DNA of 64,000 nt, from the sequence record OL451225.1, one strand, 5' to 3'. The translations under genes were made by a program, and so were the position numbers. Below the pieces are notes generated by a model. The model did no database searches. It was not told the DNA's origin and saw only the letters and a program-made list of their open reading frames with translations. Below are positions 609-57,030 of this stretch, piece by piece. Each line of letters begins with the position of its first letter. Position 1 is the first letter of the stretch. The DNA is from Escherichia phage P896.

Positions 609-3600
609 ATGGCCGATATTTTAAAACCAGCATTCAGAGCAACATCCGGTCTCGATGCTGCTGGTGAGAAAGTCATTAATGTCGCGAAAGCTGATTACTC
701 AGTTTTATCAGACGGCGTTAACGTAGATTTCTTTATAGAAGAAAACACAGTTCAACAATATGATGCGACACGAGGATACAAAAAGAACTTTGCAGTTATT
801 AACGATAACCGTATTTGGGTTGCTCAACGTGATATCGCGGCTCCGGCAGGGACATTTACCCCTCAGTATTGGTTAGCAACCCGTACTGACCCGAAATGGG
901 AAACTGTTGCATCTCCAACTCGTCAGCTTAGCTCGGGTGAATTTATCGCGGTCGACTCAGCTGCAAGCTTTACCACATTTACATTGCCTCCGAACCCGAC
1001 TGATGGTGATACCATCGTTATTAAAGATATCGGTGGCAATACCGGTTATAATGAAATCAAAGTTCAATCGAGCAATGTACCTGGTCAAGGTAACCAAAAG
1101 ATTGTTCGTTTCGGTAACCAATTTACTGAAATATTAATCAGTAAGCCGTTCTCTTACAACATGCTTATTTTCTCCAACCGCTTATGGCAGTTCTGGGAAG
1201 CAGGTAACGAAGAACGCGGAATAAGAATTGAACCAAGCTCTGGCAAATATCGAACTCAAGCATCAGATTTTATTATGCGTCATTATACGACTGCAGAAAA
1301 AATTACATTTATTCTTCCTAAGTATGCTAACCAAGGTGATATTATTAAATCTGTTGATATAGATGGATTAGGCCCATTATATCACCTGGATGTTGAAACG
1401 TTTGACGAGTCAAGTTCTCTGGGTAAACAAGGCCAACACAGTATGGAATTCCGTACTACTGGTGATGGTTTCTTCGTTTATAATGCCACCGAAAAATTGT
1501 GGGTGACCTGGGACGGTGATAATAAAACTCGTTTGCGTGTAATTCGTGACAATGTGAAATTGTTACCAAACGAAAGTATCATCGTGTTCGGTAATGATAA
1601 CAACACTGCGCAGACAATTAACATCGACCTTCCGACGGGTGTTCGTCCAGGTGATGTTGTTAAGATTGCTCTGAACTATCTCCGTAAGGCACAGACTGTT
1701 AATATTAAAGCTTCGGGTACTGATAAAATTGCATCTTCTGTTCAGTTGCTTCAGTTCCCGAAACGTTCGGAATATCCGCCGGATACTGAATGGGTACTGG
1801 TTGACTCTTTGACTTTCAATGGTAACATAAGTTATACTCCGGTTATTGAATTAAGTTACATGGAAGATACAGATAAAGGAATTAACTATTGGGTTGTTGC
1901 TCAGAACGTTCCGACTGTTGAGCGTGTTGACTCGAAGGATGATTTGACCCGTGCTCGCCTGGGTGTTATTGCATTGGCTAACCAGGCTCAGGCTAACGTT
2001 GACCATGAAAATAACCCTGAAAAAGAATTAGCAATTACTCCGCAGACTTTAGCTAACCGTGTGGCTACTGAATCACGTCGTGGTATTGCACGAATTGCTA
2101 ACACTGCCCAGGTAAACCAGGATACGACTTTTGCTTTCCAGGATGATATTATTATCTCTCCGAAAAAGTTAAACGAACGTACAGCTACTGAAACAAGACG
2201 TGGGCTTGCAGAAATCGCCACACAGCAAGAAACTGATGCAGGCACAGATGATACTACCATCATCACTCCACGTAAGCTACAAGCTCGTCAGGGCTCAGAA
2301 AGCCTATCTGGTATCGTTAAGTATGTTCCTACTACCGGGACTACTCCAGCAGCAAGCCGTATAACTGTTGGGACCAACGTTTATAATAAAAATACAACTA
2401 CTCTGGTAATTTCTCCGAAAGCTTTGGACCAATATAAAGCTGACCAGAACAACCAAGGTGCTGTATATTTGGCCACACAGTCAGAAGTTAACGCGGGGGC
2501 AACAAATACAGGATTCAGTAACTCGGTCGTGACTCCGGAAACATTAGGTGCACGCAGAGCAACAGATTCAAACCATGGTTTAATCGAGATTGCAACTCAG
2601 GCTGAAACTAATGCCGGAACCGATTATACCAGAGCTGTGACTCCTAAAACGTTGAATGACCGTAAAGCATCAGAATCATTATCCGGCATAGCCGAGATTG
2701 CTACGCAATCAGAATTTGATACTGGCACGGATGATACTCGTATCGCAACGCCATTAAAAATTAAAACTAGACTTAATAATACTGCTCGTACTTCTGTTAT
2801 TGCAGCAAGTGGTTTAGTAGAAACAGGGACGCTCTGGGACCATTATACGCTGAATATTCTTGAAGCAAATGAGACTCAACGTGGCACTGCAAGACTGGCT
2901 ACTCAACTTGAAGTTAATACCGGTACTGACGATAAAACAATCGTTACTCCGCTTAAGTTGATGTCGAAAAAAGCCACAGAAAGTACAGAAGGTATTGTTC
3001 GCATCGCTACTCGTGCAGAAACTATCACAGGAACAAGTTCGATTCTTGCTGTTTCTCCGGTTAGTCTGAAATGGATTGCACAGTCCGAACCAACATGGGC
3101 AGCAACCACGACGACCCGCGGTTTTGCTAAGATGTCCGAAGGCGCAATTACTTTTGTCGGTAATGCAACTGCAGGTTCGACCCAGGCTCTTGACCTGTAC
3201 GAGAAAAATAGCTATGCTATCTCTCCGTACGAGTTAAACAAAACTCTTGGTAACTTCCTGCCGCGGCTGGCTAAAGCAGCAGACTCGGATAAACTGGATA
3301 ACCTGGATAGCACGCAGTTTATTCGTCGTGATGTAGCACAAGATATTAATGCTAATATGACATTCAAACAGCCTGTTAGAATTGAAAGTACTTTAACAGT
3401 TACCGGCGTAGTTAATTTGAGTGGTTCTGTTACTTCAAATAATACTACATTAACCGGTGCTACTGCAATCAATAGCAATTCTACTGTAGGTGCTTTGAAT
3501 TACATTGAGTTCACTTCAGAATCTCAAGGTGCGGGTACTTGGAACTCTCAACATGATAGTAATGTTAAAGCTCCTGTATTTTTAAATATAACTACTCCGT

Positions 3601-4484
3601 CTGGCTCATCTAAATACGTTCCTTTAATTAAGCAACGTTATAAAGATGGGACATTTACCTTTGGTACATTGATAAATGAACCTACCTCAAATGATGAAGG
3701 TGCTTTTGTTCTTCATTATATAGATGCAGTAAAAACCCAGCGTAAATGGACCTTTAGACGGAATGGTGATTTAGAAATAACTGCAGGTAATTTCGTTATT
3801 GGTAATGGGTCTGCTGTAATTAATGGTGGTCTTAATGTTACTAAAGCTTCTGGTATTACAACCACTGGGCTAGTTGCCAATAGTGAATCCAGATTCGAAG
3901 GTGCTGTTGCTATTAACAACTTCCTTACGGTAAGCAACAAAGCTACACTTAACAACGGCTTAGCTGTTCAGAAATATGCAAGGGTTACAGGCGATAAGAC
4001 TTCTGACATCTATAACAGAAAACCTACAATGGATACTGTCGGCTTCTGGTCCGTTGATATCGATGACCCTGCTACATATAATCAGTTCCCGGGCTATTTC
4101 AAAATGGTCGAAAAGACTAACGAAGTAACTGGTCTGCCTTATTTGGAGCGTGGTGAAGAAGTTAAATCACCTGGCACATTGACTCAGTTTGGCAACACGC
4201 TGAATTCACTCTATCAAGACTGGATTACTTATCCGAATACTGCTAATGCCAGCACCACTCGTTGGACTCGTACATGGCAGCAGAACAAAAACGCGTGGTC
4301 TGGTTTTGTTCAGGTCTTTGATGGAGGTAACCCACCTCAGCCGTCGGATATTGGTGCATTGCCTGCTGATAACGCTTCGATGAGTAACCTGACTATCAGG
4401 GATTGGTTAAGAATCGGTAACGTACGTATTGTTCCGGACCCAGTAACCAAATCCGTTAAATTCGAATGGATTGATACACCATAA
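609..4484 (+). CDS. 34: Long tail fiber proximal subunit gp34
   Basis: 1291 aa ORF (T4 gp34 about 1289 aa); first gene of a 34-35-36-37-38 block; repetitive fibrous sequence (RxxGIARIAxxAE-type repeats). Confidence 0.9.
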   Translation: MADILKPAFRATSGLDAAGEKVINVAKADYSVLSDGVNVDFFIEENTVQQYDATRGYKKNFAVINDNRIWVAQRDIAAPAGTFTPQYWLATRTDPKWETVASPTRQLSSGEFIAVDSAASFTTFTLPPNPTDGDTIVIKDIGGNTGYNEIKVQSSNVPGQGNQKIVRFGNQFTEILISKPFSYNMLIFSNRLWQFWEAGNEERGIRIEPSSGKYRTQASDFIMRHYTTAEKITFILPKYANQGDIIKSVDIDGLGPLYHLDVETFDESSSLGKQGQHSMEFRTTGDGFFVYNATEKLWVTWDGDNKTRLRVIRDNVKLLPNESIIVFGNDNNTAQTINIDLPTGVRPGDVVKIALNYLRKAQTVNIKASGTDKIASSVQLLQFPKRSEYPPDTEWVLVDSLTFNGNISYTPVIELSYMEDTDKGINYWVVAQNVPTVERVDSKDDLTRARLGVIALANQAQANVDHENNPEKELAITPQTLANRVATESRRGIARIANTAQVNQDTTFAFQDDIIISPKKLNERTATETRRGLAEIATQQETDAGTDDTTIITPRKLQARQGSESLSGIVKYVPTTGTTPAASRITVGTNVYNKNTTTLVISPKALDQYKADQNNQGAVYLATQSEVNAGATNTGFSNSVVTPETLGARRATDSNHGLIEIATQAETNAGTDYTRAVTPKTLNDRKASESLSGIAEIATQSEFDTGTDDTRIATPLKIKTRLNNTARTSVIAASGLVETGTLWDHYTLNILEANETQRGTARLATQLEVNTGTDDKTIVTPLKLMSKKATESTEGIVRIATRAETITGTSSILAVSPVSLKWIAQSEPTWAATTTTRGFAKMSEGAITFVGNATAGSTQALDLYEKNSYAISPYELNKTLGNFLPRLAKAADSDKLDNLDSTQFIRRDVAQDINANMTFKQPVRIESTLTVTGVVNLSGSVTSNNTTLTGATAINSNSTVGALNYIEFTSESQGAGTWNSQHDSNVKAPVFLNITTPSGSSKYVPLIKQRYKDGTFTFGTLINEPTSNDEGAFVLHYIDAVKTQRKWTFRRNGDLEITAGNFVIGNGSAVINGGLNVTKASGITTTGLVANSESRFEGAVAINNFLTVSNKATLNNGLAVQKYARVTGDKTSDIYNRKPTMDTVGFWSVDIDDPATYNQFPGYFKMVEKTNEVTGLPYLERGEEVKSPGTLTQFGNTLNSLYQDWITYPNTANASTTRWTRTWQQNKNAWSGFVQVFDGGNPPQPSDIGALPADNASMSNLTIRDWLRIGNVRIVPDPVTKSVKFEWIDTP

Positions 4485-4492
4485 GAGGTATT

Positions 4493-5629
4493 ATGGAAAG
4501 ATTTATGGCTGAATTTGGACAGGGATATGTCCAAGTTCCCGTGCTTTCTGAAAATAACGCAGTAAGATATAAATTGTCGATTGCTGGGACTTGTACCAAA
4601 TCGCCAAACTATCCCTACGTTAAGTTTCAAGATGAGGCCTTCGGGCCTCAGAACTTCCAGAATGGATTAAACCTTATTGAGATTGACCCTGTAACAAATA
4701 CAATCACTGCAACCAAAAGTTATGGCTTCACAAAAGACTACGATGTTATTTCGCAGGCTTTTGTGGCTTATATTAATTCCATCCCGGCGGGTAGGATTGT
4801 TTGTTTGATATCACAGGGGAAATTGAATGCTTCTCAAACTTTAATTGATTGGTTCAGAACACACGGCTCGACTGCATTCCCGGATAAGTGGCTGATTGAC
4901 CAAGTTGATACTTCATATTCGGCATTTTATATAACTGGTCGAAATGCAATCGTTAAAGAGCATGTGTTGTATAATGACGGGAAAACTGTTGAGGATGTAT
5001 TGACTCCATTGGAAATGGTGTATGACAACTTTGCTGATGTGGGCGGCACAGGGTTCCCTCTGCGCATCGTGGAAGACGAAAACACATATTACAGTAATAG
5101 TACACAAGAAATAAAACGTTTCCCCACAGACTCTCCTATCACTCCTGCGGCCGATTATAATATGGCCCCTGGTGATACTTTTTACCTGAAGTTTCAGCTG
5201 ACATATGACCAGGCACTTAAAGACCTTGGAACAACTCAGATGTCTGTTCGATTCTTTAATGGTCAGACGATGATTCAGTCAAACGATTATGATATCCCAT
5301 CTTCAGGACAAGCAAGCCCACCGGCTGGTGCATGGATGACGTTTGAACGTTATGTAGTTGTTCCACCGAATGCTGATGGATTTACACTGTACGCAAGGAA
5401 GACTGTTACTGCTGGACAAGGTGGAGTAAGGAATATTTTCTTTACAGAAATCGCGCGACAAGAAACACAAGCTAAATCCGCGGAAATCGGTGTCAACGGT
5501 ATAAGAATGGTTGTAGCTGGAGAACCAGGAAATCTTGGTAATGTCATTGCACAATTGAATGATAAAAATGCAACTAAAGCAAGTCAGTCTGGATTTGTAT
5601 TTGCCGCAGAATTCCGTGAAAAAGAATAA
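4493..5629 (+). CDS. 35: Long tail fiber hinge protein gp35
   Basis: 378 aa ORF immediately after 34 (T4 gp35 about 372 aa); SD aagagg upstream. Confidence 0.85.
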   Translation: MERFMAEFGQGYVQVPVLSENNAVRYKLSIAGTCTKSPNYPYVKFQDEAFGPQNFQNGLNLIEIDPVTNTITATKSYGFTKDYDVISQAFVAYINSIPAGRIVCLISQGKLNASQTLIDWFRTHGSTAFPDKWLIDQVDTSYSAFYITGRNAIVKEHVLYNDGKTVEDVLTPLEMVYDNFADVGGTGFPLRIVEDENTYYSNSTQEIKRFPTDSPITPAADYNMAPGDTFYLKFQLTYDQALKDLGTTQMSVRFFNGQTMIQSNDYDIPSSGQASPPAGAWMTFERYVVVPPNADGFTLYARKTVTAGQGGVRNIFFTEIARQETQAKSAEIGVNGIRMVVAGEPGNLGNVIAQLNDKNATKASQSGFVFAAEFREKE

Positions 5630-17081: not shown

Positions 17082-17101
17082 CTCCAGTAGTTGATAGGTT
17101 C

Positions 17102-25481: not shown

Positions 25482-25856
25482 TTATTCCTTAAAGTGTGCT
25501 TTCAACATCTGGTAAACGGTCCAGGCTTCAGAGTTATTAGAAATGGTGATTTTAGTCAAAGGGAATTCGCTTGGTTCAAATGCTTCATCAGCGTCTTCGC
25601 ATTCGTCTTCAGTATCGTCATCTTTTTCTTCTTCAAAGAAACGACGCTCATCTTCCTTTATGAATATTCTCTCCATTCCACCGGTCGAAAATTCTATCCG
25701 ATATACATCACCGCCTTCAATTCCGACTGGTCTAAATCCTTCACCATTGATTATAGCATCAGCTATATTATCATTATCAGAGCATAACAAACGAAATCTG
25801 CTTTCAGCAACATTATCTTTAAAATAATACCATTTATCAGTTTCAAATTTCAACAT
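25482..25856 (-). CDS. Hypothetical acidic protein
   Basis: Track ORF 25482..25979; likely start at the internal ATG (MLKFETDKWYYF...) to avoid a long overlap with the upstream gene; acidic C-terminal stretch. Confidence 0.45.
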   Translation of the reverse strand: MLKFETDKWYYFKDNVAESRFRLLCSDNDNIADAIINGEGFRPVGIEGGDVYRIEFSTGGMERIFIKEDERRFFEEEKDDDTEDECEDADEAFEPSEFPLTKITISNNSEAWTVYQMLKAHFKE

Positions 25857-26073
25857 GATAAGTCTCCTTCCAAAAATCTGTACCATCTTCTGATTCTTCG
25901 CGGAACAGTGCATAGCTAGGTAATTCCGCACCTTCATACGCATACACATAAATGATATCAGTGGTGCAAAGAAATTCATTGATGTTTTTCTTCACAATCA
26001 CTTTATCACTTTCAGCGGTTTCCCAGAACTCTTCAGCGGTCAGGGAAGTGGTCACACAATCTTCATTAAACAT
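25843..26073 (-). CDS. Hypothetical protein
   Basis: 76 aa ORF in track. Confidence 0.45.
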   Translation of the reverse strand: MFNEDCVTTSLTAEEFWETAESDKVIVKKNINEFLCTTDIIYVYAYEGAELPSYALFREESEDGTDFWKETYHVEI

Positions 26074-27701: not shown

Positions 27702-27732
27702 TTTGTTGTCCTCATCAGTAGTTGATGAGATG

Positions 27733-31817: not shown

Positions 31818-31848
31818 TTTATTATCCTCATCAGTAGTTGATAGGAAC

Positions 31849-35418: not shown

Positions 35419-35502
35419 TATATTTTTCCTTATCAATTCATATTGTTTGTATGTTAATTATATCATATTGGTTTAAAGCATAAATACAAGAAAGGAGGAT
35501 GT

Positions 35503-35700
35503 ATGCTCAAACTATCTAGTCTAATTCAAGCCATCAAAGGCAGTCGTAAGCGAACGATTCTGGTCCTTTCGATACTCTGTTTTGTTCTACTCTGGAATTT
35601 CATTGTTGTCCCTATTGCATTGGCACATGGTGTTATATTGCCAGTCGTCGCGCTCGAATCAGTTGTAGATGTTTCACTGGCATTAATCGGCCTTATATAA
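35503..35700 (+). CDS. Small two-TM membrane protein on the opposite (+) strand
   Basis: 65 aa ORF with a strong SD (aaaggagg, 5 nt before the ATG); hydrophobic segments TILVLSILCFVLLWNFIVVPIALA and VVDVSLALIGLI; the only plausible + strand gene inside the minus-strand early block. Confidence 0.45.
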   Translation: MLKLSSLIQAIKGSRKRTILVLSILCFVLLWNFIVVPIALAHGVILPVVALESVVDVSLALIGLI

Positions 35701-35808
35701 ATGGAACTTACTGGTTGTGCCTATCGCTGCAACACAAGGGGTGCACTTACCCCAGGTCACAATAGAACATATTCATTCCATCATCGGTTACTTTACCGGA
35801 ATCCCTTC

Positions 35809-36837
35809 CTAAACTTTTGCGTACTTCGAAAGTCGCATTCTCGCCATCAATCCTTGAGCAACGTTATCGGCCATATATGATTCGATTTGTTCAGGGGTTG
35901 CCCCTTCTGATTTAACCATCTCATTTATGTCTTTCGTATGCCATGGTGCATTGTCCCAGAACATAACAGCTTCGCCAGCTTCAACGAGCTTCTTCATACG
36001 TTTAATCGTATCCGGATGTCTTGGCTCGTTGTCCATTACCCATACTCTTGTTTCAGCATAAGGAACAGCTTCCAATGCCAATGTGCCACCGGTTATCGCA
36101 ATGCTGTTAGGGATAAACAAACTATCAATTGGACCTTCCATTACCCATACGCGTTTACGCTCATCAATCTTGTCTACTCCATAGACTTTGGAAGCTTCTG
36201 GGTGAGCTTTGATTGTGATATATTTTTGTGGTGCATCTTTGCGAAGAGCTCGTCCTTGGAAAGATTCGATTTCTTTTTTGCCGTTGAAGATAGGAATAAC
36301 CAAGCGTGGTTCATTCGTTTCATTCTTATACGTCCCAGGATTGACGGAGTTAACTAATGCAGGCCATTTGTTTGTAAACCATAACCGGTTCCAAACATTG
36401 CTAGGAATACACCGACTTTTTACATACTTAATTATCGGATGTGCTTCTGGTAAAGTATCGAGTCTTTCACAAAAAGCAAGCTGCTCGATAACCGGAGTTT
36501 TTTCTGGTTCTTTCGGAGTTTCTGCAACTTCATTGCGCTGTCTGCCAAAGGCATTCTCCTTATACTTCTCAACCATATATTCCCGGTGTAAATCCGGCTC
36601 AAACTCTTTTATGTATTTGCTTATATGCGTGGAGTAGTCACAGTTAAAACATTTCACGTAAACCGCGCCATCAGACGGATTGGTATACGCCCAGAATCTG
36701 GCTTTATGTGAATCTTTCTGGGAGTCGCCACAAACTTTACATCTGCAGTTTGCCTTAAATGTGCTCCCGGTGACTTCTCTATAACGTGGTTGATACGATA
36801 AAGCTCTGATTGCAAATTCTCTATCAATATATGACAT
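35809..36837 (-). CDS. 61: DNA primase gp61
   Basis: 342 aa (T4 gp61 342 aa); zinc-binding CxxC...C.NC motif at the N-terminus and a Toprim region (SFQGRAL.KDAPQKYITI, EGPIDSLFI, RVWV.DNEPRHPDTIKRM) matching T4 gp61 as I recall it. Confidence 0.92.
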   Translation of the reverse strand: MSYIDREFAIRALSYQPRYREVTGSTFKANCRCKVCGDSQKDSHKARFWAYTNPSDGAVYVKCFNCDYSTHISKYIKEFEPDLHREYMVEKYKENAFGRQRNEVAETPKEPEKTPVIEQLAFCERLDTLPEAHPIIKYVKSRCIPSNVWNRLWFTNKWPALVNSVNPGTYKNETNEPRLVIPIFNGKKEIESFQGRALRKDAPQKYITIKAHPEASKVYGVDKIDERKRVWVMEGPIDSLFIPNSIAITGGTLALEAVPYAETRVWVMDNEPRHPDTIKRMKKLVEAGEAVMFWDNAPWHTKDINEMVKSEGATPEQIESYMADNVAQGLMARMRLSKYAKV

Positions 36838-37056
36838 AGTTTCCTCATTTCAATGGCCCCGAAGGACCATTATACTGTAGGTTTATCGTCTTTGTTCTTA
36901 CGCTTTTTTGATGGGATTTGTTCAGGGCCTTTATTGACAACTGCCCCGGAAGTGGTACCTGTTGTGATATTAGTTGGGTTTCCACCTGCATCACCTGCAA
37001 CCATATCTTCGTTGATAAAATCTTTGAATGTTTTCATAACACCCCCTTTCCGCTAT

Positions 37057-37248
37057 TTATACAACAAAGATAGCTTTATCACCATTTGCATCAGTCACTT
37101 CATAAGTGTCTTCATGATACAACGGAATAATCCAGGTAACACCATCATCAGCGATAACATGGATTGCTTCTTGGTCTTGCGACACGATTTCATATTCTTC
37201 AAAAAGCTGGAAGACCGAAATCTTAGAGCCCGTACACATTGCACTCAT
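37057..37248 (-). CDS. Hypothetical protein
   Basis: 63 aa ORF in track. Confidence 0.4.
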   Translation of the reverse strand: MSAMCTGSKISVFQLFEEYEIVSQDQEAIHVIADDGVTWIIPLYHEDTYEVTDANGDKAIFVV

Positions 37249-37444
37249 ATTGTTCCCTTCTTTTAATCAATTGACGATGTGCCTTTTTAAGTTTACGAAT
37301 CTGACGTTTAGTCGGTCGCGCAACGTAAGCTTGTGTAGTTACTCGTCCAAAAACACCATACTTAGGCGAAGGAGTATCAATAAAGACTTCCCACTGGCAA
37401 GAGTAACTATATATTGCTTTAGAGAATTGGGTCAAAACAAACAT
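37223..37444 (-). CDS. Hypothetical basic protein
   Basis: 73 aa ORF; start codon lies inside the 45 nt junction repeat. Confidence 0.45.
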   Translation of the reverse strand: MFVLTQFSKAIYSYSCQWEVFIDTPSPKYGVFGRVTTQAYVARPTKRQIRKLKKAHRQLIKRREQYECNVYGL

Positions 37445-37485
37445 ATTAACCTCGCTTCATGAAGGCATTAAAAATCTGGTCATCA
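37441..37485 (-). repeat. Direct repeat copy 1 (gene-junction cassette: last 12 codons + stop + 5 nt + ATG)
   Basis: catattaacctcgcttcatgaaggcattaaaaatctggtcatcaa matches 37801-37845 at 42 of 44 positions. Confidence 0.8.
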
Positions 37486-37805
37486 ATATCAGTAGGCGGT
37501 TCTTGAGCTTTGACCCAAGCCCCTTCCAGAATGTCATTTGCTTCAGTAGATATCATGACCCCAATTTCAGGGTTTCCGGTTATCCAGGCTGCACAATCGC
37601 GGACATTCTTTTTATCAAATGGATAACCACGATTATCTTCACAAGGCCCATTCATTGTCATAAATGAACGAGCCTTTATGATAACATCATCTTTAACGAT
37701 AATATAACCAATCGCCTGATTAAACCGTGGCTCACGAAATTCATAATGGGCATTACCATCATTATTGCTCGCCAGTTCAAAATTCAGAAAATTATAATAA
37801 CTCAT
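37446..37805 (-). CDS. Hypothetical protein ending in DDQIFNAFMKRG
   Basis: 119 aa ORF; C-terminal 12 residues and the downstream junction are shared with the next gene upstream. Confidence 0.5.
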   Translation of the reverse strand: MSYYNFLNFELASNNDGNAHYEFREPRFNQAIGYIIVKDDVIIKARSFMTMNGPCEDNRGYPFDKKNVRDCAAWITGNPEIGVMISTEANDILEGAWVKAQEPPTDIDDQIFNAFMKRG

Positions 37806-37845
37806 ATTAATCTCGCTTCATGAAAGCATTAAAAATCTGGTCATC
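37801..37845 (-). repeat. Direct repeat copy 2 (gene-junction cassette)
   Basis: catattaatctcgcttcatgaaagcattaaaaatctggtcatcaa; see copy 1. Confidence 0.8.
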
Positions 37846-38241
37846 AACTGAATATACAGGGGTTTCCAGAAGTTTCAAAAGACTGTTTTTGATGTACTTA
37901 CCCGGGATACCCTTAACAATACTGTCATTCAACTCATTATCAGGGTTGATGTCTTTAAATTCAAACCCGTCAAACTCAACCTTGTCAGGAATACCGTCAG
38001 CGAAAAAATAAACCAATTGGTGCATTGTATTGCGCGAAAATAATTTAGACTTGACCGCAATAAGTTCTTGCCAATGGTTTAATTCTTTGTTAAGAAGTTT
38101 ATGAGCAAACGTAATTCTATTATCACTATCAACAAGAAAATAACCCAGGTATTGAATCTCGTCGCTCCAAAACACCCTGTATGCCTGCGCATTTGGATTT
38201 TTACAACGAAGTTTTTTGATAACCAAATTTCTGTTAATCAT
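37807..38241 (-). CDS. Hypothetical protein ending in DDQIFNAFMKRD
   Basis: Track ORF 37807..38376; likely start at ATG 38241 (MINRNLVIKK...) in a TAAAATG overlap with the upstream lipoprotein gene stop. Confidence 0.5.
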   Translation of the reverse strand: MINRNLVIKKLRCKNPNAQAYRVFWSDEIQYLGYFLVDSDNRITFAHKLLNKELNHWQELIAVKSKLFSRNTMHQLVYFFADGIPDKVEFDGFEFKDINPDNELNDSIVKGIPGKYIKNSLLKLLETPVYSVDDQIFNAFMKRD

Positions 38242-38242
38242 T

Positions 38243-38536
38243 TTATTCACCTGTAACCCATTGAACAATTTTGCTATTGTCAAATGAAGCATCGCAATAC
38301 AGAATATAGTTATACTGCATAACGTCACCAGAAGACAATTGGTCAGATACTTCTTTAACCATATCAGGGCGGTCACGTTTGGTTATGTTCATGATATCAG
38401 CACGAATCTGGGTTTCAACTTCAGATTGCTCTGCTGTCATAGACCATTCACAAAGGTTTTTATCAAGCCCAGCAGTAACTGGAGCTGTACCACATGATGC
38501 TACGGTAAGAATTGCTGCAATAATTAACTTTTTCAT
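38243..38536 (-). CDS. sp: Periplasmic lipoprotein, Spackle (Sp)-like by size and position
   Basis: 97 aa with signal peptide/lipobox MKKLIIAAILTVASCG; T4 Sp (61.3) is a 97 aa secreted protein in the 61-41 interval. Assignment is by size and position only. Confidence 0.45.
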   Translation of the reverse strand: MKKLIIAAILTVASCGTAPVTAGLDKNLCEWSMTAEQSEVETQIRADIMNITKRDRPDMVKEVSDQLSSGDVMQYNYILYCDASFDNSKIVQWVTGE

Positions 38537-38564
38537 AATGTTCTCCTCAGTAGTTGATATGGAT

Positions 38565-38594
38565 AATATACTGCATTATCCCTTTGATGTAAAC
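38565..38594 (-). promoter_or_regulatory. Early promoter (GTTTACA minus-35 / 17 bp / TATATT) with ATCAACTACTG leader
   Basis: Minus strand: GTTTACAtcaaagggataatgcagTATATTatccatATCAACTACTGAGGAGaacattATG. Confidence 0.5.
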
Positions 38595-38596
38595 TG

Positions 38597-38800
38597 TTAT
38601 TTTTCGTTAGAACGATAATCACATTCAAAAACTTTATTGTCATTAACAAAGGCTTTAACCAGCGCATTATTCACTTCTGCATACTGCACTGTAACCCATT
38701 CAATCATATTTTTGTCACTGACATCCAGCGCGGTTTCTTTGGTAAACATATTACCATTTTCAAACCAACCAATAAACAATACGTTCTCTAATTTATACAT
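38597..38800 (-). CDS. Hypothetical protein
   Basis: 67 aa ORF in track. Confidence 0.45.
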   Translation of the reverse strand: MYKLENVLFIGWFENGNMFTKETALDVSDKNMIEWVTVQYAEVNNALVKAFVNDNKVFECDYRSNEK

Positions 38801-39118
38801 TTAGATTTCCTCACAAAACGCCCAGGCAGCGTGATAAACTGTTGCGCCTTTAGTATCATTTAAACAAACCACGTCAACAGGTGCAATCACACGATAAAGA
38901 CGGGGTTCTCCTCCATATGAGCGAGCTGCTCTTCCTGCATAGATACGCGCCAAACCAATATCTTCAGTAAAAAACACACGCCCTAAATTTTTCTTACGCC
39001 CAACTTCTGACAGAACACCAGTTGCATCAGGAGGACAAAGCATATTTTGGATTCCAGCATTAGAGCTTGACCCATGATAATAAACTTTGTATTCTGCCTT
39101 GCAATCAATGGTTTTCAT
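38801..39118 (-). CDS. Hypothetical protein with possible H-G-S (PARP/diphtheria-toxin-class) ADP-ribosyltransferase-like signature
   Basis: 105 aa; YHGSSSNAGIQNM..PP....G then GRVFFTEDIGLARIYAG resembles the PARP catalytic-core pattern HGS..NFAGIL......PP....G...GKGIYFA; too short for a canonical domain, so speculative. Confidence 0.5.
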   Translation of the reverse strand: MKTIDCKAEYKVYYHGSSSNAGIQNMLCPPDATGVLSEVGRKKNLGRVFFTEDIGLARIYAGRAARSYGGEPRLYRVIAPVDVVCLNDTKGATVYHAAWAFCEEI

Positions 39119-39154
39119 TTTATTCTCCAGTAGTTGATAGGGTCATTATAACAT

Positions 39155-39177
39155 AAGAAAAAGGGGCTGTAAGCCCC
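39155..39177 (-). terminator. Intrinsic terminator-like hairpin
   Basis: ggggctgtaagcccc hairpin followed on the minus strand by a T-run; next is a TATAAT plus ATCAACTACTGGAGA leader for the downstream gene. Confidence 0.5.
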
Positions 39178-39186
39178 TTTGTTCAC

Positions 39187-39489
39187 TTACGCCAACTCAT
39201 AGTTGTGCATAGTCAGACAACGAATTTTCCCAGTAGTTGGGTGCATAACAGTCACACTAATTGTGTAATCATCGCACACGTTAACAAAAGGTTCAGCGAT
39301 AACATATACTGCCCCGCCTGCAAGCAGATACTCACGAAGAGAGCTGCGAACAGATGAAGGTTGAACATCGCTTTTGAGCTTTATTAATTTACCAGTTTGA
39401 ATGCCTGATGCGATAAGAGCAGCACAGTTTTCATCACGGCGAGCGAATTGTCCAAAATAGTAACGATTCATATCGGTTTGATTAAACAT
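39187..39489 (-). CDS. Hypothetical protein
   Basis: 100 aa ORF in track, preceded by a promoter cassette. Confidence 0.45.
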   Translation of the reverse strand: MFNQTDMNRYYFGQFARRDENCAALIASGIQTGKLIKLKSDVQPSSVRSSLREYLLAGGAVYVIAEPFVNVCDDYTISVTVMHPTTGKIRCLTMHNYELA

Positions 39490-39538
39490 ATGGTTTTCCT
39501 TTTAACAGTTGGTTTATTGTGTAACTCAGTATGGAATC

Positions 39539-39578
39539 ATTATGTCCTAAGACAAGGGGCTTGTACACTATTTTAATT
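39539..39578 (-). promoter_or_regulatory. Early promoter cassette (TGTACA / 17 bp / CATAAT), PeSL-like
   Basis: Minus strand: aaaatagTGTACAagccccttgtcttaggaCATAATgattccatactgagttacac. Confidence 0.6.
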
Positions 39579-39816
39579 CATTAATTAAATGAAAATCTTG
39601 TGCATTGAAAGTAATGAAAAAATAATCATTCCCTTCAACTGAAGCATGACAGGCAACACTACACCAGCGCCTTGCTCTGTTCAAGGAGCAATCCAAAATT
39701 TTAAAAGGCTTCAGACCAACAATGGCAGCTGTTCTTTTATTATGCTCACAAATATCAGCATACTTTTGGAGAGCTTCTTCAGATTTGAACTGGTAATGCA
39801 CATTAACTAATAACAT
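39568..39816 (-). CDS. Hypothetical protein (adjacent to gene 41, where T4 carries dmd)
   Basis: 82 aa ORF with the ATCAACTACTGATGAGGA leader upstream; T4 Dmd is 60 aa, so equivalence is only positional. Confidence 0.4.
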   Translation of the reverse strand: MLLVNVHYQFKSEEALQKYADICEHNKRTAAIVGLKPFKILDCSLNRARRWCSVACHASVEGNDYFFITFNAQDFHLINELK

Positions 39817-39882
39817 TTTATTATCCTCATCAGTAGTTGATGGGATAATAGTACACCCTTTTTATGAGGATGTAAACCCCTA

Positions 39883-39905
39883 AATGAAAAAAGGTCCACC
39901 CGAAG
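39883..39905 (-). terminator. Weak terminator-like hairpin after gene 41
   Basis: Short GC stem (accc..gggt) followed on the minus strand by a T-run, just 3' of the gp41 stop. Confidence 0.3.
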
Positions 39906-39910
39906 GGTCT

Positions 39911-41350
39911 TTAGAATTTCATTTGAGCAGCAAGGTCGTCCAGGTCGCTCCTGTTGACCCTGGTTTGTCTATTCATTTCAGCCTGGCGATTCATCTCACC
40001 GGTGGCTTCTTTAACCGTAGGGCCTTGTTTAGGAGCTGAATCATCATCAACCTCGTACCAGCGCTGATTACCTTTCTTAACACCCATCTTGAATTTATTA
40101 TAGTAGTTCTTATCGCCATAACGAGACTTAAGCTGTTTGATTAACTGCAGACCCATTTGAGCGAATTCTTCAGTCTCAACAACACCCAACATAAAGTCGG
40201 CCGTGTGAGCAATACCAAAGGATTCTGCGATGTCAGCCATATCAATCTCAGCTGCAACGTTCGCGCCCCTGGTTGTCTGTGCTGCAGTCCACAGGACCAC
40301 ATTTTTCTCAACAGCCAGACCACGAAGTTCTTCTGCAACCATCTTAATCAGGCCGTAACTGTTTTCGGTAAACGTTTTCAGTCTTGAGCTTGCACAGATT
40401 GCCAGGTAGTCAACAATAATCACATCCGGCACAAACCCTTGCTTCAGTTTGTATTCATTCAATAATGCACGGAAGGTATCTGCATGAGCACCGCCAGTTG
40501 GATATTGTTTTATCTTCAGAGTCCCAAGAGTCCCTGATGCCCGCCATTTTTCCATCTTAGCTTTGTATTCTGCCCATGATATATGACCTTCATCAATATC
40601 ATCCAGAGACACATCCAGCAAGTTGGCATCAATACGTTTGGCACATACTTCTTCAGCCATTTCCATGCTTATATAAAGCACGTTATGACCAGTCTGAAGA
40701 TAGTCGGCCGCTAACGAACAAAGTCCCAGAGATTTCCCGACGTTGGTCCCGGCCAGTAAAACGTTCTCTGTGCCATACTCAACCCCACCCTTTGTGATTT
40801 TATTCAGGATGTTAATACGGAACGGAACCTTCTTCGATTTGTTCAGATAAGTCTGGAATCGAGCCTCGTAATCGTTTAACCAGTCATGGCCGAGGGCAGA
40901 ATCAAAACAGATGGACAATGCATCACGCATGATGTCAGGGATAGCACCGATATCCGGGATTCGTTTATCACGTTTATCTTTCGGAAGTTCGGCATTACTC
41001 TGGATTTCGATAATCCTGGATGTGGCATTGAACATCGCAGATTTCTGCACATACTTCTCGGTTTCTCTAACCAACCATTCTTGGTCTTCTGGAGTATCGG
41101 CCAGGACTCCTAAGAGTTTCTTTGTGCCTTCATATTCGACTTCAGAAAGGTCAGAACTGTCGAGCGCGATATCAAGTGCAGTCTTAGTTGGTACCGCTTG
41201 ATATTCTTTTACGTGTTCGTTAATCGTATTAAAAAGAGTCTTCGCGGGACCCTTTTCAAAATATGTGTTATTCAGATACGGCCAGACTTTAACAAAATAT
41301 TCCTTGTTAAAGAGTAGCTGGGATAAAATAGTTTCTACCACTTCCACCAC
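39911..41350 (-). CDS. 41: Replicative DNA helicase gp41 (DnaB-like)
   Basis: 479 aa (T4 gp41 475 aa); Walker A GTNVGKS and DnaB-family blocks. Confidence 0.92.
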   Translation of the reverse strand: MVEVVETILSQLLFNKEYFVKVWPYLNNTYFEKGPAKTLFNTINEHVKEYQAVPTKTALDIALDSSDLSEVEYEGTKKLLGVLADTPEDQEWLVRETEKYVQKSAMFNATSRIIEIQSNAELPKDKRDKRIPDIGAIPDIMRDALSICFDSALGHDWLNDYEARFQTYLNKSKKVPFRINILNKITKGGVEYGTENVLLAGTNVGKSLGLCSLAADYLQTGHNVLYISMEMAEEVCAKRIDANLLDVSLDDIDEGHISWAEYKAKMEKWRASGTLGTLKIKQYPTGGAHADTFRALLNEYKLKQGFVPDVIIVDYLAICASSRLKTFTENSYGLIKMVAEELRGLAVEKNVVLWTAAQTTRGANVAAEIDMADIAESFGIAHTADFMLGVVETEEFAQMGLQLIKQLKSRYGDKNYYNKFKMGVKKGNQRWYEVDDDSAPKQGPTVKEATGEMNRQAEMNRQTRVNRSDLDDLAAQMKF

Positions 41351-41679
41351 CTCTTTTTCATTTTAATTTTATCAATTTCATCTTGTATTTGCATTGTAAC
41401 ACACTTTTCTACATGCACAGCAAGCTCCGCTTTGCGGTCTTCAGAAGGGGTGCCGAAATCAACTGAAACTTTTCCAGATGGTTCAATTTTAATTCCGGTT
41501 ACGTACACAATGTGACTGGACCCATCAGGGAGTGATAACAGAATTTCCTGCCGTACAGTTCCCATGGATTGCCGGATAATCTCCAAACTTTTTTCGTAGT
41601 AAGGTACAGAAGGAGCCTTAGCTCCCTCCGCATCTTTCTCGAAATTATCTAAATCAGATAAATCGATATCATTCATCAA
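41335..41679 (-). CDS. 40: gp40 (head vertex assembly chaperone)
   Basis: 114 aa ORF between uvsX and 41 as in T4. Confidence 0.7.
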   Translation of the reverse strand: MMNDIDLSDLDNFEKDAEGAKAPSVPYYEKSLEIIRQSMGTVRQEILLSLPDGSSHIVYVTGIKIEPSGKVSVDFGTPSEDRKAELAVHVEKCVTMQIQDEIDKIKMKKRWWKW

Positions 41680-43446: not shown

Positions 43447-43590
43447 TCAATTAAAACATTCATAGCGGGCTTGGAGCCCCAAAAATACCCAACCCAAAAT
43501 TAAAGTTGGAATCATATGTGGAGTCATTATTGCCCAGTAGATTGACATACTAAAAAATGCAATCAGTACAATAATTGTAATTATCTTCAT
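43447..43590 (-). CDS. Small membrane peptide (imm.1 position)
   Basis: 47 aa MKIITIIVLIAFFSMSIYWAIMTPHMIPTLILGWVFLGLQARYECFN read by hand; ATGA overlap with the imm stop. Confidence 0.4.
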   Translation of the reverse strand: MKIITIIVLIAFFSMSIYWAIMTPHMIPTLILGWVFLGLQARYECFN

Positions 43591-43829
43591 TTTGCTTCCT
43601 TGATGATAATTACTTGTGCATTTGATTTACGTTCAGCAACGAGTGCCCAGATAAATGCAATAAACCATCCGACCATTGTCCAACCTAACAGGAGGTTAAC
43701 AAAGAAGATTCCGCAATTACTTTTGGTTCCACGCAGTAGCGCGATAATCCACGGCAGAAAATATACCAGTGCAGCCAGGAAGAAAGAACCAGCCCCAAGA
43801 ACAACAGTACCCGCAATTAATGCTTCCAT
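43587..43829 (-). CDS. imm: Superinfection immunity protein Imm (membrane)
   Basis: Track ORF 43587..43901; likely start at ATG 43829, giving an 80 aa two-TM protein (T4 Imm 83 aa) directly downstream of gene 43. Confidence 0.7.
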   Translation of the reverse strand: MEALIAGTVVLGAGSFFLAALVYFLPWIIALLRGTKSNCGIFFVNLLLGWTMVGWFIAFIWALVAERKSNAQVIIIKEAK

Positions 43830-43901
43830 TTTAATATCCTCAAGTTTGTAATCAGTAGTTGATGGAACAATCATACGGCAATCCTTTGCCGTTGTAAACA
43901 C

Positions 43902-56999: not shown

Positions 57000-57030
57000 T
57001 TTGTTTTCCTCATCAGTAGTTGATGGGATA

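Follow-up and report, generated by a model that had tools for sequence, protein, structure and literature searches.

A hyperplastic block of ten small genes between genes 41 and 61 of Escherichia phage P896

Genes, cassettes and breakpoints of the interval

We analyze a block of small genes in a window of 64,000 nucleotides (nt) of Escherichia phage P896 (OL451225.1), namely the interval 36838-39910 (3073 bases) that separates the helicase gene 41 from the primase gene 61. Every gene of this neighborhood is read from the minus strand; uvsX, 40 and 41 come first, followed by the small-gene block and then 61, with gene 41 at 39911-41350 and gene 61 at 35809-36837, and we letter the small genes A to J following the order of transcription. 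Ten tightly packed minus-strand open reading frames (ORFs) tile the interval and occupy about 88% of its bases (coordinate sum): nine of 63-144 amino acids (aa), as a first-pass annotation made from the sequence had claimed in stating at least nine for these roughly 3 kb, and in addition the 55-aa gene J (61.1). The length of 144 aa assigned to F in that annotation is also borne out, its start codon being the ATG at 38241-38239.

The genes meet at characteristic joints, TAAATG at C/D, TAAAATG at E/F and TAATATG at both F/G and G/H, while H and I overlap by 26 nt. All ten ORFs match a PHROG family, and the ratio of nonsynonymous to synonymous substitution rates (dN/dS, measured against VR7 or JS98) lies between 0.01 and 0.34 for B to J, and between 0.01 and 0.28 for B, G, H, I and J, which corresponds to purifying selection. 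Because of these ratios and the PHROG matches, we treat B to J as real genes rather than ORFs that arose by chance. On the plus strand, the ORFs of this stretch (e.g. 36853-37266) are unsupported and overlie minus-strand genes under purifying selection. Homology and structure searches assign families or folds to most of the ORFs, and B remains an ORFan.

How unusual is this block? Aligned over 99% of its length, the interval shares 96.8% identity with Shigella phage SP18 (Gaprivervirus, Tevenvirinae), where the same ten genes are annotated in the same order and tblastn confirms each at 91-100% identity. In all, 116 phage records match the interval and 16 cover at least 80% of it. One-to-one homologues in the same order are therefore essentially at hand in T-even relatives, for all ten genes in SP18 and for nine of the ten in VR7; these relatives are known from published genome sequences. 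T4 has five genes here (dmd, 61.4, sp, 61.2, 61.1), so that the first-pass annotation was right to see more genes than in T4, and its word 'expanded' is apt relative to T4 but not relative to the wider group, in which the interval holds 11 genes in VR7, 11 in RB69, 8 in JS98, 7 in the Tequatrovirus PP01 and 17 in Acinetobacter phage Konradin. Across the T4-type phages compared, the interval thus spans 5 to 17 genes; T4 sits at the short end of this range and the block is not unusual. Since the Konradin interval carries 17 small ORFs (among them a homologue of C and a nucleotidyltransferase), the 41-61 interval is an accessory-gene hot spot across the whole T4-type family. A scan of viral contigs anchored on Sp returned just 5 near-identical loci and is uninformative for diversity. 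The block is a hyperplastic (variable) region whose content is already in GenBank in relatives such as SP18, and a claim of novel content fails. The plasticity of such regions has been attributed to recombination at composite promoter and stem-loop elements, or PeSLs (PMC2839356; PMC4122927). As a genome feature the block is ordinary; its value lies in a miniature ADP-ribosyltransferase (ART) next to dmd, in tandem short relatives of AdfA and in a map of breakpoints.

Four early-promoter-like sites, found as consensus matches, precede A, B, C and E, each within a minus-strand cassette. P1 (39817-39910, before A) opens with a hairpin and T-run after gene 41 (39885-39910), followed by TTTACA-N17-TACTAT at 39876-39848; P2 (39490-39567, before B) carries TGTACA-N17-CATAAT at 39567-39539; P3 (39119-39186, before C) carries CTTACA-N17-TATAAT at 39173-39145; and P4 (38537-38596, before sp) carries TTTACA-N17-TATATT at 38593-38565. 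In P1, P3 and P4 the leader ATCAACTACTG (at 39831-39841, 39128-39138 and 38548-38558, respectively) follows 6 nt after the −10 hexamer and is itself followed by a Shine-Dalgarno sequence and an ATG. The leader of P2 differs and lacks the motif, so that of the four promoter/leader cassettes described in the first-pass annotation all four stand as promoter-like sites and only three share the leader.

The leader is found well beyond the block. There are 8 exact copies of ATCAACTACTG in the 64 kb; all are on the minus strand, and each sits 6 nt downstream of a TAnnAT −10 hexamer and just ahead of a Shine-Dalgarno sequence and an ATG, where chance would give about 1.1 matches (both strands, one mismatch allowed); the copies outside the block are at 17085-17095, 27716-27726, 31832-31842, 43853-43863 and 57014-57024. 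Because eight exact copies share a constant promoter context, ATCAACTACTG reads as a genome-wide early leader that is nothing special to the block. The genome-wide form of the early cassette is G(T/G)TACA-N17-TAnnAT-N6-ATCAACTACTG-(AT)GAGGA...ATG, and the shared 5' leader implies that many early mRNAs would begin with the same ~25 nt. Several of the genome-wide copies contain GGAG, which we take to be the RegB cleavage motif known from T4.

The cassettes differ in their secondary structure. In P1, ATCAACTACTG lies within a stem-loop predicted to sequester the Shine-Dalgarno sequence of A (−13.9 kcal/mol, z −4.0). We reject a general Shine-Dalgarno-sequestering hairpin in the shared leader, as P1 alone folds significantly and the P3 and P4 leaders do not. 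P3 is a composite of PeSL type, with a 9-bp G+C stem-loop and T-run (39180-39160) whose loop carries the −35 hexamer and which appears in the centroid structure at −13.5 kcal/mol, and P2 and P4 have weak stems only. T4, JS98 and RB69 have orthologous cassettes ahead of sp and ahead of C or dmd. From this arrangement we infer four transcription units: P1-A, P2-B, P3-C-dmd and P4-sp-F-G-H-I-J. What weighs against these units is that promoters and terminators are called by consensus match only.

Breakpoints, located by BLASTN of the block against relatives (five compared), fall at a small number of places. G is absent from JS98, in which homology ends at 37487 and resumes at 37803, edges that lie at two copies of a 45-nt repeat described below. 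JS98 also lacks both A and B, the homology being interrupted at 39141 (inside P3) and picked up again at 39869 (at the −35 hexamer of P1); VR7 lacks A alone, and there the edges are at 39549 (P2) and 39871 (P1). JS98, VR7 and phage 212 all have insertions of extra ORFs at 38603-38618, the boundary between the dmd stop codon and P4. Every gene gain or loss relative to JS98, VR7 and phage 212 breaks at a cassette or at the 45-nt repeat. Divergence is uneven as well: DNA identity to JS98 is 78-91% for the small genes and 67-75% for genes 61, 41 and 40, against VR7 the synonymous divergence dS runs from 0.12 (J) to 1.24 (dmd) between neighboring genes, and conservation between genera is higher for H, I and J than for the neighboring primase. 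Sharp breakpoints together with uneven divergence are direct evidence of modular exchange, in agreement with the PeSL model.

Two probable short relatives of AdfA and the 45-nt repeat

Now we consider the two genes whose joints carry the repeat. F (37807-38241, minus strand, 144 aa) encodes a short AdfA-related protein of the JS98 gp030 type, and G (37446-37805, minus strand, 119 aa) encodes a second short AdfA-related protein. The first-pass annotation had described a junction-repeat gene pair, and we find it as a direct repeat of 45 nt, 96% identical, at 37442-37486 and 37803-37847 on the minus strand, with just these two copies in 64 kb. The copy at 37803-37847 comprises the 3' end of F (DDQIFNAFMKRD plus the stop codon), the junction and the ATG of G; the copy at 37442-37486 comprises the 3' end of G (DDQIFNAFMKRG plus the stop codon), the junction and the ATG of H. 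The repeat encodes the peptide DDQIFNAFM(K/N)RG, the same peptide that ends AdfA, and DDQIFNAFM is invariant in AdfA and in the F-type and G-type proteins. AdfA is encoded by T4 61.2 and is an anti-DarT factor first found in RB69 (PMC11257639).

The slot downstream of sp is occupied differently in different phages. It holds an AdfA of 208-212 aa in T4 and RB69, an F-type gene in JS98, the tandem of F and G here, and, in T2, RB32, RB51 and PP01, a gene for a 118-aa protein that is 45% identical to G and is labeled '61.2' in PP01. G is about 45% identical over its full length to ~300 Tequatrovirus records, and the 118-aa relatives carry precomputed Pfam AdfA matches. F is present in 85 phage records.

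With the terminal peptide included, hhalign gives probabilities of 97.5% for G against AdfA, 97.7% for F against AdfA and 97.5% for the F family against the G family, over 90-100 columns. With bodies only, E values from hidden Markov models (HMMs) range from 1e-5 to 1e-2 overall, with ~1e-5 for divergent relatives of F and G, and the alignment register is consistent, AdfA ~110-186 falling on positions ~20-100 of the short proteins. The AlphaFold2 model of F has an alpha/beta body (residues 1-95) with a predicted local distance difference test score (pLDDT) of 80-92 and, in a flexible but conserved tail (residues 98-143, pLDDT below 50), helices at 116-124 and 131-140. Foldseek of this model against BFVD finds a 118-aa viral protein at E 2.3e-5; T4 gp61.2 is not among the top 50 matches of that search, which leaves the fold link between F and AdfA an indirect one. 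The likeness of F and G to AdfA (PF23813) consists of the same slot downstream of sp, an identical C-terminal peptide, the same gene joint and a weak similarity, in consistent register, to the C-terminal half of AdfA. The differences are that both lack the N-terminal half of AdfA (~100 residues) and that the position of RB69 R164H, the residue of DarT1 neutralization, aligns approximately to H74/Q75 of F and R69/D70 of G.

Several results weigh against reading F and G as AdfA-like antitoxins. On the Pfam AdfA profile G scores 20.5 and F 13.1 bits against a cut-off of 27, and the match covers the last 14 residues only (profile 198-211 of ~210). When the tail is removed, hhalign gives P values of 0.0017-0.0031 and probabilities of 9-16%, and the body-only HMM E values are 4e-4 for G and 2e-3 for F. 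Finally, T4 without adfA shows no DarTG1 phenotype (PMC11257639), and an anti-DarT role of F and G is far from assured. The alignments lead us to view both F and G as short proteins that are probably related to AdfA's C-terminal half, though not as Pfam-level members of its family.

Could the repeat instead be primarily a DNA-level recombination element, with F and G being unrelated genes that have inherited a common 3' joint? We regard this as a minority possibility. It would account for the G indel relative to JS98 being bounded exactly by the two repeats, for the repeat running past the stop codon into the next ATG and containing the Shine-Dalgarno sequence GAGG of the next gene, for F, G and AdfA being barely alignable without the tail, and for the tail DNA being 89% identical to T4 while the flanking core genes are at ~64-67%. 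However, the synonymous sites of the tail vary between phages (GAT/GAC, CAA/CAG, ATT/ATA, GCT/GCC/GCA, TTT/TTC) while the peptide DDQIFNAFM stays constant, and because of this we read the selection on the tail as acting on the protein, with the DNA identity as an apparent by-product that also offers a recombination joint. Further points speak against a bare joint: the conserved C-terminal stretch of the F family extends over ~30 residues, the weak body similarity keeps its register, the 118-aa relatives of G have their Pfam AdfA matches, and Foldseek ties F to a protein of 118 aa. The two roles of the repeat, as DNA joint and as protein motif, can also coexist.

Taking F and G as short relatives of AdfA, then, the shared and constrained terminal helix is probably partner-docking, and with DDQIFNAFM(K/N)RG set on different bodies the two proteins are most likely alternative toxin-neutralizing specificities, as predicted from their sequences. 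The 61.2/adfA locus is polymorphic, with at least three body types on one constrained C-terminal helix and two of the short relatives in this phage, and T2, which has been described as lacking adfA, has a short relative too. This locus suggests a modular 'common handle, variable body' design for toxin neutralization.

T4 AdfA itself contains a small internal similarity. Residues 38-53 and 131-146 (adfA at locus 4133-4759) share (I/V)FVK(D/N)N-I (hhalign P 0.002), and G-type bodies sometimes align better to the N-terminal copy of this motif. An old internal duplication may lie behind this, but we do not claim AdfA as an internal duplication of an F/G module, as only a 15-residue motif recurs (P 0.002) and this is too weak.

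A minimal ADP-ribosyltransferase fold next to dmd

C (38801-39118, minus strand, 105 aa) is the 'H-G-S' candidate gene singled out in the first-pass annotation, and its stop codon abuts the start codon of dmd in the TAAATG joint. Homologues occur in 609 phage records (from phages of Escherichia, Klebsiella, Acinetobacter, Aeromonas, Enterobacter, Vibrio and others), most of them 60-90% identical, and identity remains at 60-70% across Escherichia, Klebsiella, Acinetobacter, Aeromonas and Vibrio phages. A few of these records are annotated 'putative ADP-ribosyl transferase' or 'rifampin ADP-ribosyl transferase'. C is absent from the 41-61 interval of T4 and from the first 50 kb of T4.

The AlphaFold2 model of C, built on a 36-sequence alignment, has a pLDDT of 85.8 and the split beta-sheet fold of ARTs. 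Foldseek against the PDB places Arr first (2hw2, template-modeling score 0.61), followed by KptA, ParT, pertussis-like toxins and PARPs. C has no direct match in Pfam, in NCBIfam or among PDB sequences, either as a single sequence or as the 36-sequence profile; the link to Arr needed both structure prediction and a search of 1.84 billion representative proteins. In that search the C-family profile finds 244 relatives, many of them as modules in proteins of 250-3900 aa, and C-type modules (found at E 1e-22 to 1e-29) score 26.8-31.5 bits on Pfam Arr-ms (PF12120) against a cut-off of 25, which makes for a transitive link. Among the 36 aligned members of the C family two match Arr-ms (best E 0.084), and the protein of the window does not.

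The modules keep particular company. C-type modules neighbor ART-PolyVal, NUDIX, 2H/Acb1-like, Toprim, GNAT, lambda-type portal and tape-measure domains, and this pairing with enzymes that process ADP-ribose products hints, by analogy, at the chemistry of the C family. Among the giant phage proteins with C-type modules, one of 3924 aa also has a tape-measure domain, another is fused to a portal and continues into a 2H/Acb1-like phosphoesterase, and a third combines ART-PolyVal, C-type and NUDIX domains. Across 99 full-length C domains H15, G16, [TS]17, F/Y49, T/S51 and Y60 are invariant, and E38, R41, G69, G70 and G91 are nearly so. We take H-G-[ST] and the spacing of 11 from the aromatic residue to Tyr to mirror the nicotinamide adenine dinucleotide (NAD+) pocket of PARP and Arr, the residue assignment being made by analogy. 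An invariant basic loop, SE-GRKKNL, is specific to the C family and sets it apart from Arr (the rifampin ADP-ribosyltransferase), the RNA 2'-phosphotransferase KptA/Tpt1 and AcrIF11, an anti-CRISPR ART of phages.

To what extent is this an enzyme paired with Dmd? The points that weigh against it are the missing direct sequence match, the catalytic acid and the gene's location. A catalytic acid could not be placed with confidence: E103 is conserved (≥90%) only among stand-alone phage proteins, and in most multidomain relatives the alignment does not reach it. In RB69, JS98, SP18 and this phage C abuts or overlaps dmd, and in Konradin it is within the 41-61 interval, but Klebsiella phage Matisse has it at a different place, five genes upstream of RNA ligase 2, as does Aeromonas phage 65, where it lies in the tk-pseT region, so the link between C and dmd is lineage-specific.

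C might not be an active transferase but a degenerate ART fold that serves as a binder or decoy of NAD+ or ADP-ribose, or a simple NADase. This we consider doubtful. Such a protein would fit the small size of C (105 aa, where Arr has ~140 aa), the absence of a KptA-type N-terminal lobe, the failure to place a conserved catalytic Glu or Asp with confidence, and the missing direct Pfam match. Against this stand the NAD+-type signature (H-G-[ST], then a strand with aromatic-x-[ST] and, 11 residues on, a Tyr, with E38 and R41), which is carried as invariant or nearly so through 99 divergent domains; the embedding of the module beside NUDIX and 2H phosphoesterase domains, which process ADP-ribose products; and the identity of 60-70% from Vibrio and Acinetobacter phages to coliphages, which indicates strong constraint.

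By its predicted fold, C is a real and conserved minimal ART of the Arr/KptA lineage. It is unlike Arr, KptA and AcrIF11 in its size of 105 aa and in having no direct sequence match to solved structures, and unlike KptA/Tpt1 in lacking the RNA-binding N-lobe, aligning to ~75 of 179 KptA residues. In KptA/Tpt1 it is this N-terminal RNA-binding lobe that carries the catalytic Arg-His-Arg residues. In our proposed mechanism C would act as a stand-alone Arr/KptA-like ART, likely co-translated with Dmd, in the NAD+-dependent modification of a host or RNA target, and a function at RNA ends or in anti-defense is an inference from its neighbors and fold relatives.

The C-type modules embedded beside ART-PolyVal, NUDIX and similar domains resemble the polyvalent proteins of phages (Pfam ART-PolyVal context; surveyed in PMC9503650), with the difference that C is here a free-standing early gene and not part of a virion-delivered giant protein. 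This polyvalent context suggests, by analogy, effector use early in infection. A broader speculation, which we hold only tentatively and think unlikely as a whole, is that the C family comprises widespread minimal ARTs that Straboviridae use as infection begins, whether as separate proteins or as parts of injected polyvalent, portal or tape-measure proteins, and that in coliphages C would form with Dmd a two-part counter to RNA-targeting defenses in which C ADP-ribosylates a phosphorylated RNA end or a defense protein or signal. NAD+/ADP-ribose chemistry is central to current phage-defense biology (DarTG, CmdTAC, AcrIF11). We found no paper characterizing C in the literature searched, and the gene is perhaps unstudied because the model phage T4 lacks it in its early region (first 50 kb).

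Accessory cargo and comparison with known systems

The two genes of the block with the best-understood relatives are dmd and sp. Gene D (dmd; 38597-38800, minus strand, 67 aa) matches Pfam PF17587 at E 3.9e-20 (72.4 bits, cut-off 27; residues 4-63 cover profile positions 3-59 of 60) and PHROG 2102 at E 2e-33, and its product is 54% identical to T4 Dmd. As a member of this known family, D would be an antitoxin against the host ribonucleases RnlA and LsoA. Between dmd and sp, VR7 (locus 2963-3588) and phage 212 (locus 3258-3599) have extra ORFs, two in the former and one in the latter. A segment of the phage 212 ORF is 42% identical to Dmd residues 33-63, and this ORF may be a second Dmd-like gene.

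Gene E (sp; 38243-38536, minus strand, 97 aa) encodes Spackle, with a match to Pfam T4_Spackle (PF25676) at E 1.7e-42 (144.3 bits, cut-off 27; residues 1-96 cover profile positions 1-96 of 96), and is 65% identical to T4 Sp. In T4, Spackle is soluble in the periplasm and inhibits the tail lysozyme gp5 of superinfecting phage; it has a mature form from Gly23 to Glu97 and a disulfide between Cys29 and Cys81 (PMC7677548). E keeps the context of cleavage between A and G (...PVTA before and GLDKNLCEW... after the predicted site) and both disulfide cysteines (the second in ...YILYCD...). A lipobox-like ASC motif is present in E and in T4 Spackle alike. The first-pass annotation's 'Sp-like 97-aa lipoprotein' is thus right as to Spackle and unsupported as to the lipoprotein, given that T4 Spackle is soluble in the periplasm and mature from Gly23 (PMC7677548) and that E retains the A-G site and the cysteines.

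The remaining genes, likewise of the minus strand, are A, B, H, I and J. A (39568-39816, 82 aa) is a half-size GoF-like gene: it matches PHROG 2980 ('goF') at E 3.6e-20, and its residues 4-64 align to residues 7-69 of the 141-aa T4 GoF (comC-alpha) at 33% identity (pairwise E 1e-7). Since a full-length goF orthologue lies at 25485-25859 (minus strand; 31% identical to T4 GoF over 141 aa), A appears to be an extra, half-size paralogue of the N-terminal half of GoF. The RefSeq/PHROG label 'goF' for A is overstated, with similarity to the N-terminal half only and the true goF elsewhere in the window. Homologues of A, about 57% identical, occur in ~71 Tequatrovirus records (e.g. PP01_038, in the same interval), and VR7 and JS98 lack it. 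B (39187-39489, 100 aa) is found in 21 phage records only, all of the SP18/VR7 (Gaprivervirus) kind at 94-100% identity, forms a single 90% cluster among 5.8 billion proteins, has no match in Pfam or NCBIfam, and shows a dN/dS of 0.20 against VR7; by these searches it is a true, genus-restricted ORFan. H (37223-37444, 73 aa) matches Pfam DUF7279 at E 3.3e-20 (72.2 bits against a cut-off of 24.5) and is a homologue of T4 61.4 at 39% identity, relocated downstream of sp. I (37057-37248, 63 aa) belongs to the RB69 ORF033c family (PHROG 3249 at E 9e-34; 66% identity to RB69 ORF033c and 90% to JS98 gp028), and J (36870-37037, 55 aa) is the T4 61.1 homologue (PHROG 1823 at E 8e-32; 75-86% identity to T4 61.1). 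A scan limited to the first 50 kb of T4 finds no homologue there of B, C or I.

No function could be assigned to these five genes, which counts against the idea that the block is directed at the host or at competitors. It is conceivable that the extra ORFs (A, B, H, I and J, perhaps F and G as well) play no part in defense or takeover and are filler that the phage could do without, carried along as selfish or neutral passengers of recombination, a view that we judge quite unlikely. Close relatives differ in which of the extra ORFs they have, B does not occur outside a single genus, there is no known function for any of the candidates, and the deletion of adfA in T4 is without phenotype (PMC11257639). 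Yet dN/dS is 0.01-0.28 for B, G, H, I and J, H, I and J are better conserved between genera than the adjacent primase, and each candidate is translationally coupled or has a ribosome-binding site of its own.

An origin of F and G by in-place tandem duplication and divergence is very unlikely: the two are adjacent, in the same orientation, with the same tail and TAATATG joint and a family-to-family hhalign probability of 97.5%, but G is 45% identical over its full length to the slot gene of T2, RB32 and PP01 while BLAST finds nothing between the F and G bodies, and the occurrence of F alone in JS98-type phages and of a G-type gene alone in T2-type phages fits two old alleles joined by unequal recombination at the shared tail. 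Since G resembles the T2-type gene more than it does F, the tandem looks like two alleles captured together and not a local duplication.

We therefore arrive at an overall explanation, to which we assign a probability of about 0.8: the block is a hyperplastic region of four early units that recombine at promoter cassettes and at AdfA-type 3' ends and that carry accessory cargo directed at the host or at competitors. Four short early units (P1-A, P2-B, P3-C-dmd and P4-sp-F-G-H-I-J), each headed by a cassette, would lie between the core genes 41 and 61. Recombination would take place at two kinds of site, the near-identical promoter/leader cassettes and the conserved 3' end of AdfA-family genes, so that units may be gained, lost and swapped while the core remains syntenic. 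The cargo would consist of accessory early proteins, with Dmd predicted to act as the antitoxin for RnlA/LsoA and Spackle predicted to block the gp5 lysozyme of an incoming phage. For C, F and G anti-defense roles are putative but plausible. The first-pass annotation's suggestion that the additional genes are candidates for host takeover or anti-defense is in this light a reasonable one, and it is strengthened for F and G by the AdfA signature and for C by the predicted ART fold.

Some features near the block stand apart from this argument. Two UUCG-tetraloop hairpins bracket it on the minus strand: ATGGTCCTTCGGGGCCAT at 36853-36870 (GGTCC-TTCG-GGGCC), read off the sequence between J (61.1) and gene 61, and GACCC-TTCG-GGT at 39895-39909 after gene 41. 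The first of these has no trailing T-run and is not called as a terminator. Similar TTCG hairpins follow gene 41 in JS98, RB69 and VR7, and an Rfam scan of 35500-41500 at E ≤1 matched zero RNA families. A hydrophobic ORF of 65 aa lies on the plus strand between genes 56 and 61 (35503-35700), at the place where RB69 ORF029w is annotated and where phage 212 has a feature 'similar to hypothetical protein'. Outside the block, at 43590-43829 (minus strand), is a homologue of imm (superinfection immunity), whose product shares 51% identity with RB69 Imm; in RB69 itself, imm and imm.1 are part of the 41-61 block.

Among the closest published frames of comparison are VR7, T4 and the PeSL model. VR7 (Gaprivervirus) shares nine of the ten block genes in the same order, and its annotation already labels the orthologues of G and H as 61.2 and 61.4; it differs in lacking A and in having two extra ORFs between dmd and sp, where phage 212 has one. 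With T4 the block shares the flanking genes 41 and 61, orthologous dmd, sp and 61.1, a homologue of 61.4, the AdfA tail (on F and G here) and an early promoter cassette before sp. It differs in having ten genes in 3.07 kb where T4 has 5 genes in 1.65 kb, two short relatives (144 and 119 aa) in place of a single 208-aa AdfA, and the 61.4 homologue downstream of sp.

The PeSLs described by Arbiol et al. 2010 (PMC2839356) and Comeau et al. 2014 (PMC4122927) combine a stem-loop and an early promoter (TTTACW-N17-TAYWAT) between small ORFs of hyperplastic regions. The elements of this block are like them in that composition and in that indels between relatives break inside or at the edge of the elements (39141, 39549, 39869/39871 and 38603-38618). 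They are unlike PeSLs in that a clear terminator-like stem-loop is present in P1 and P3 only, and in that the best-conserved part is not the stem-loop but the transcribed leader ATCAACTACTG with its Shine-Dalgarno sequence. A third difference is the use of an additional type of joint, the conserved coding tail, and the base-level breakpoint map thus indicates that promoter cassettes and a conserved coding tail both act as recombination joints.

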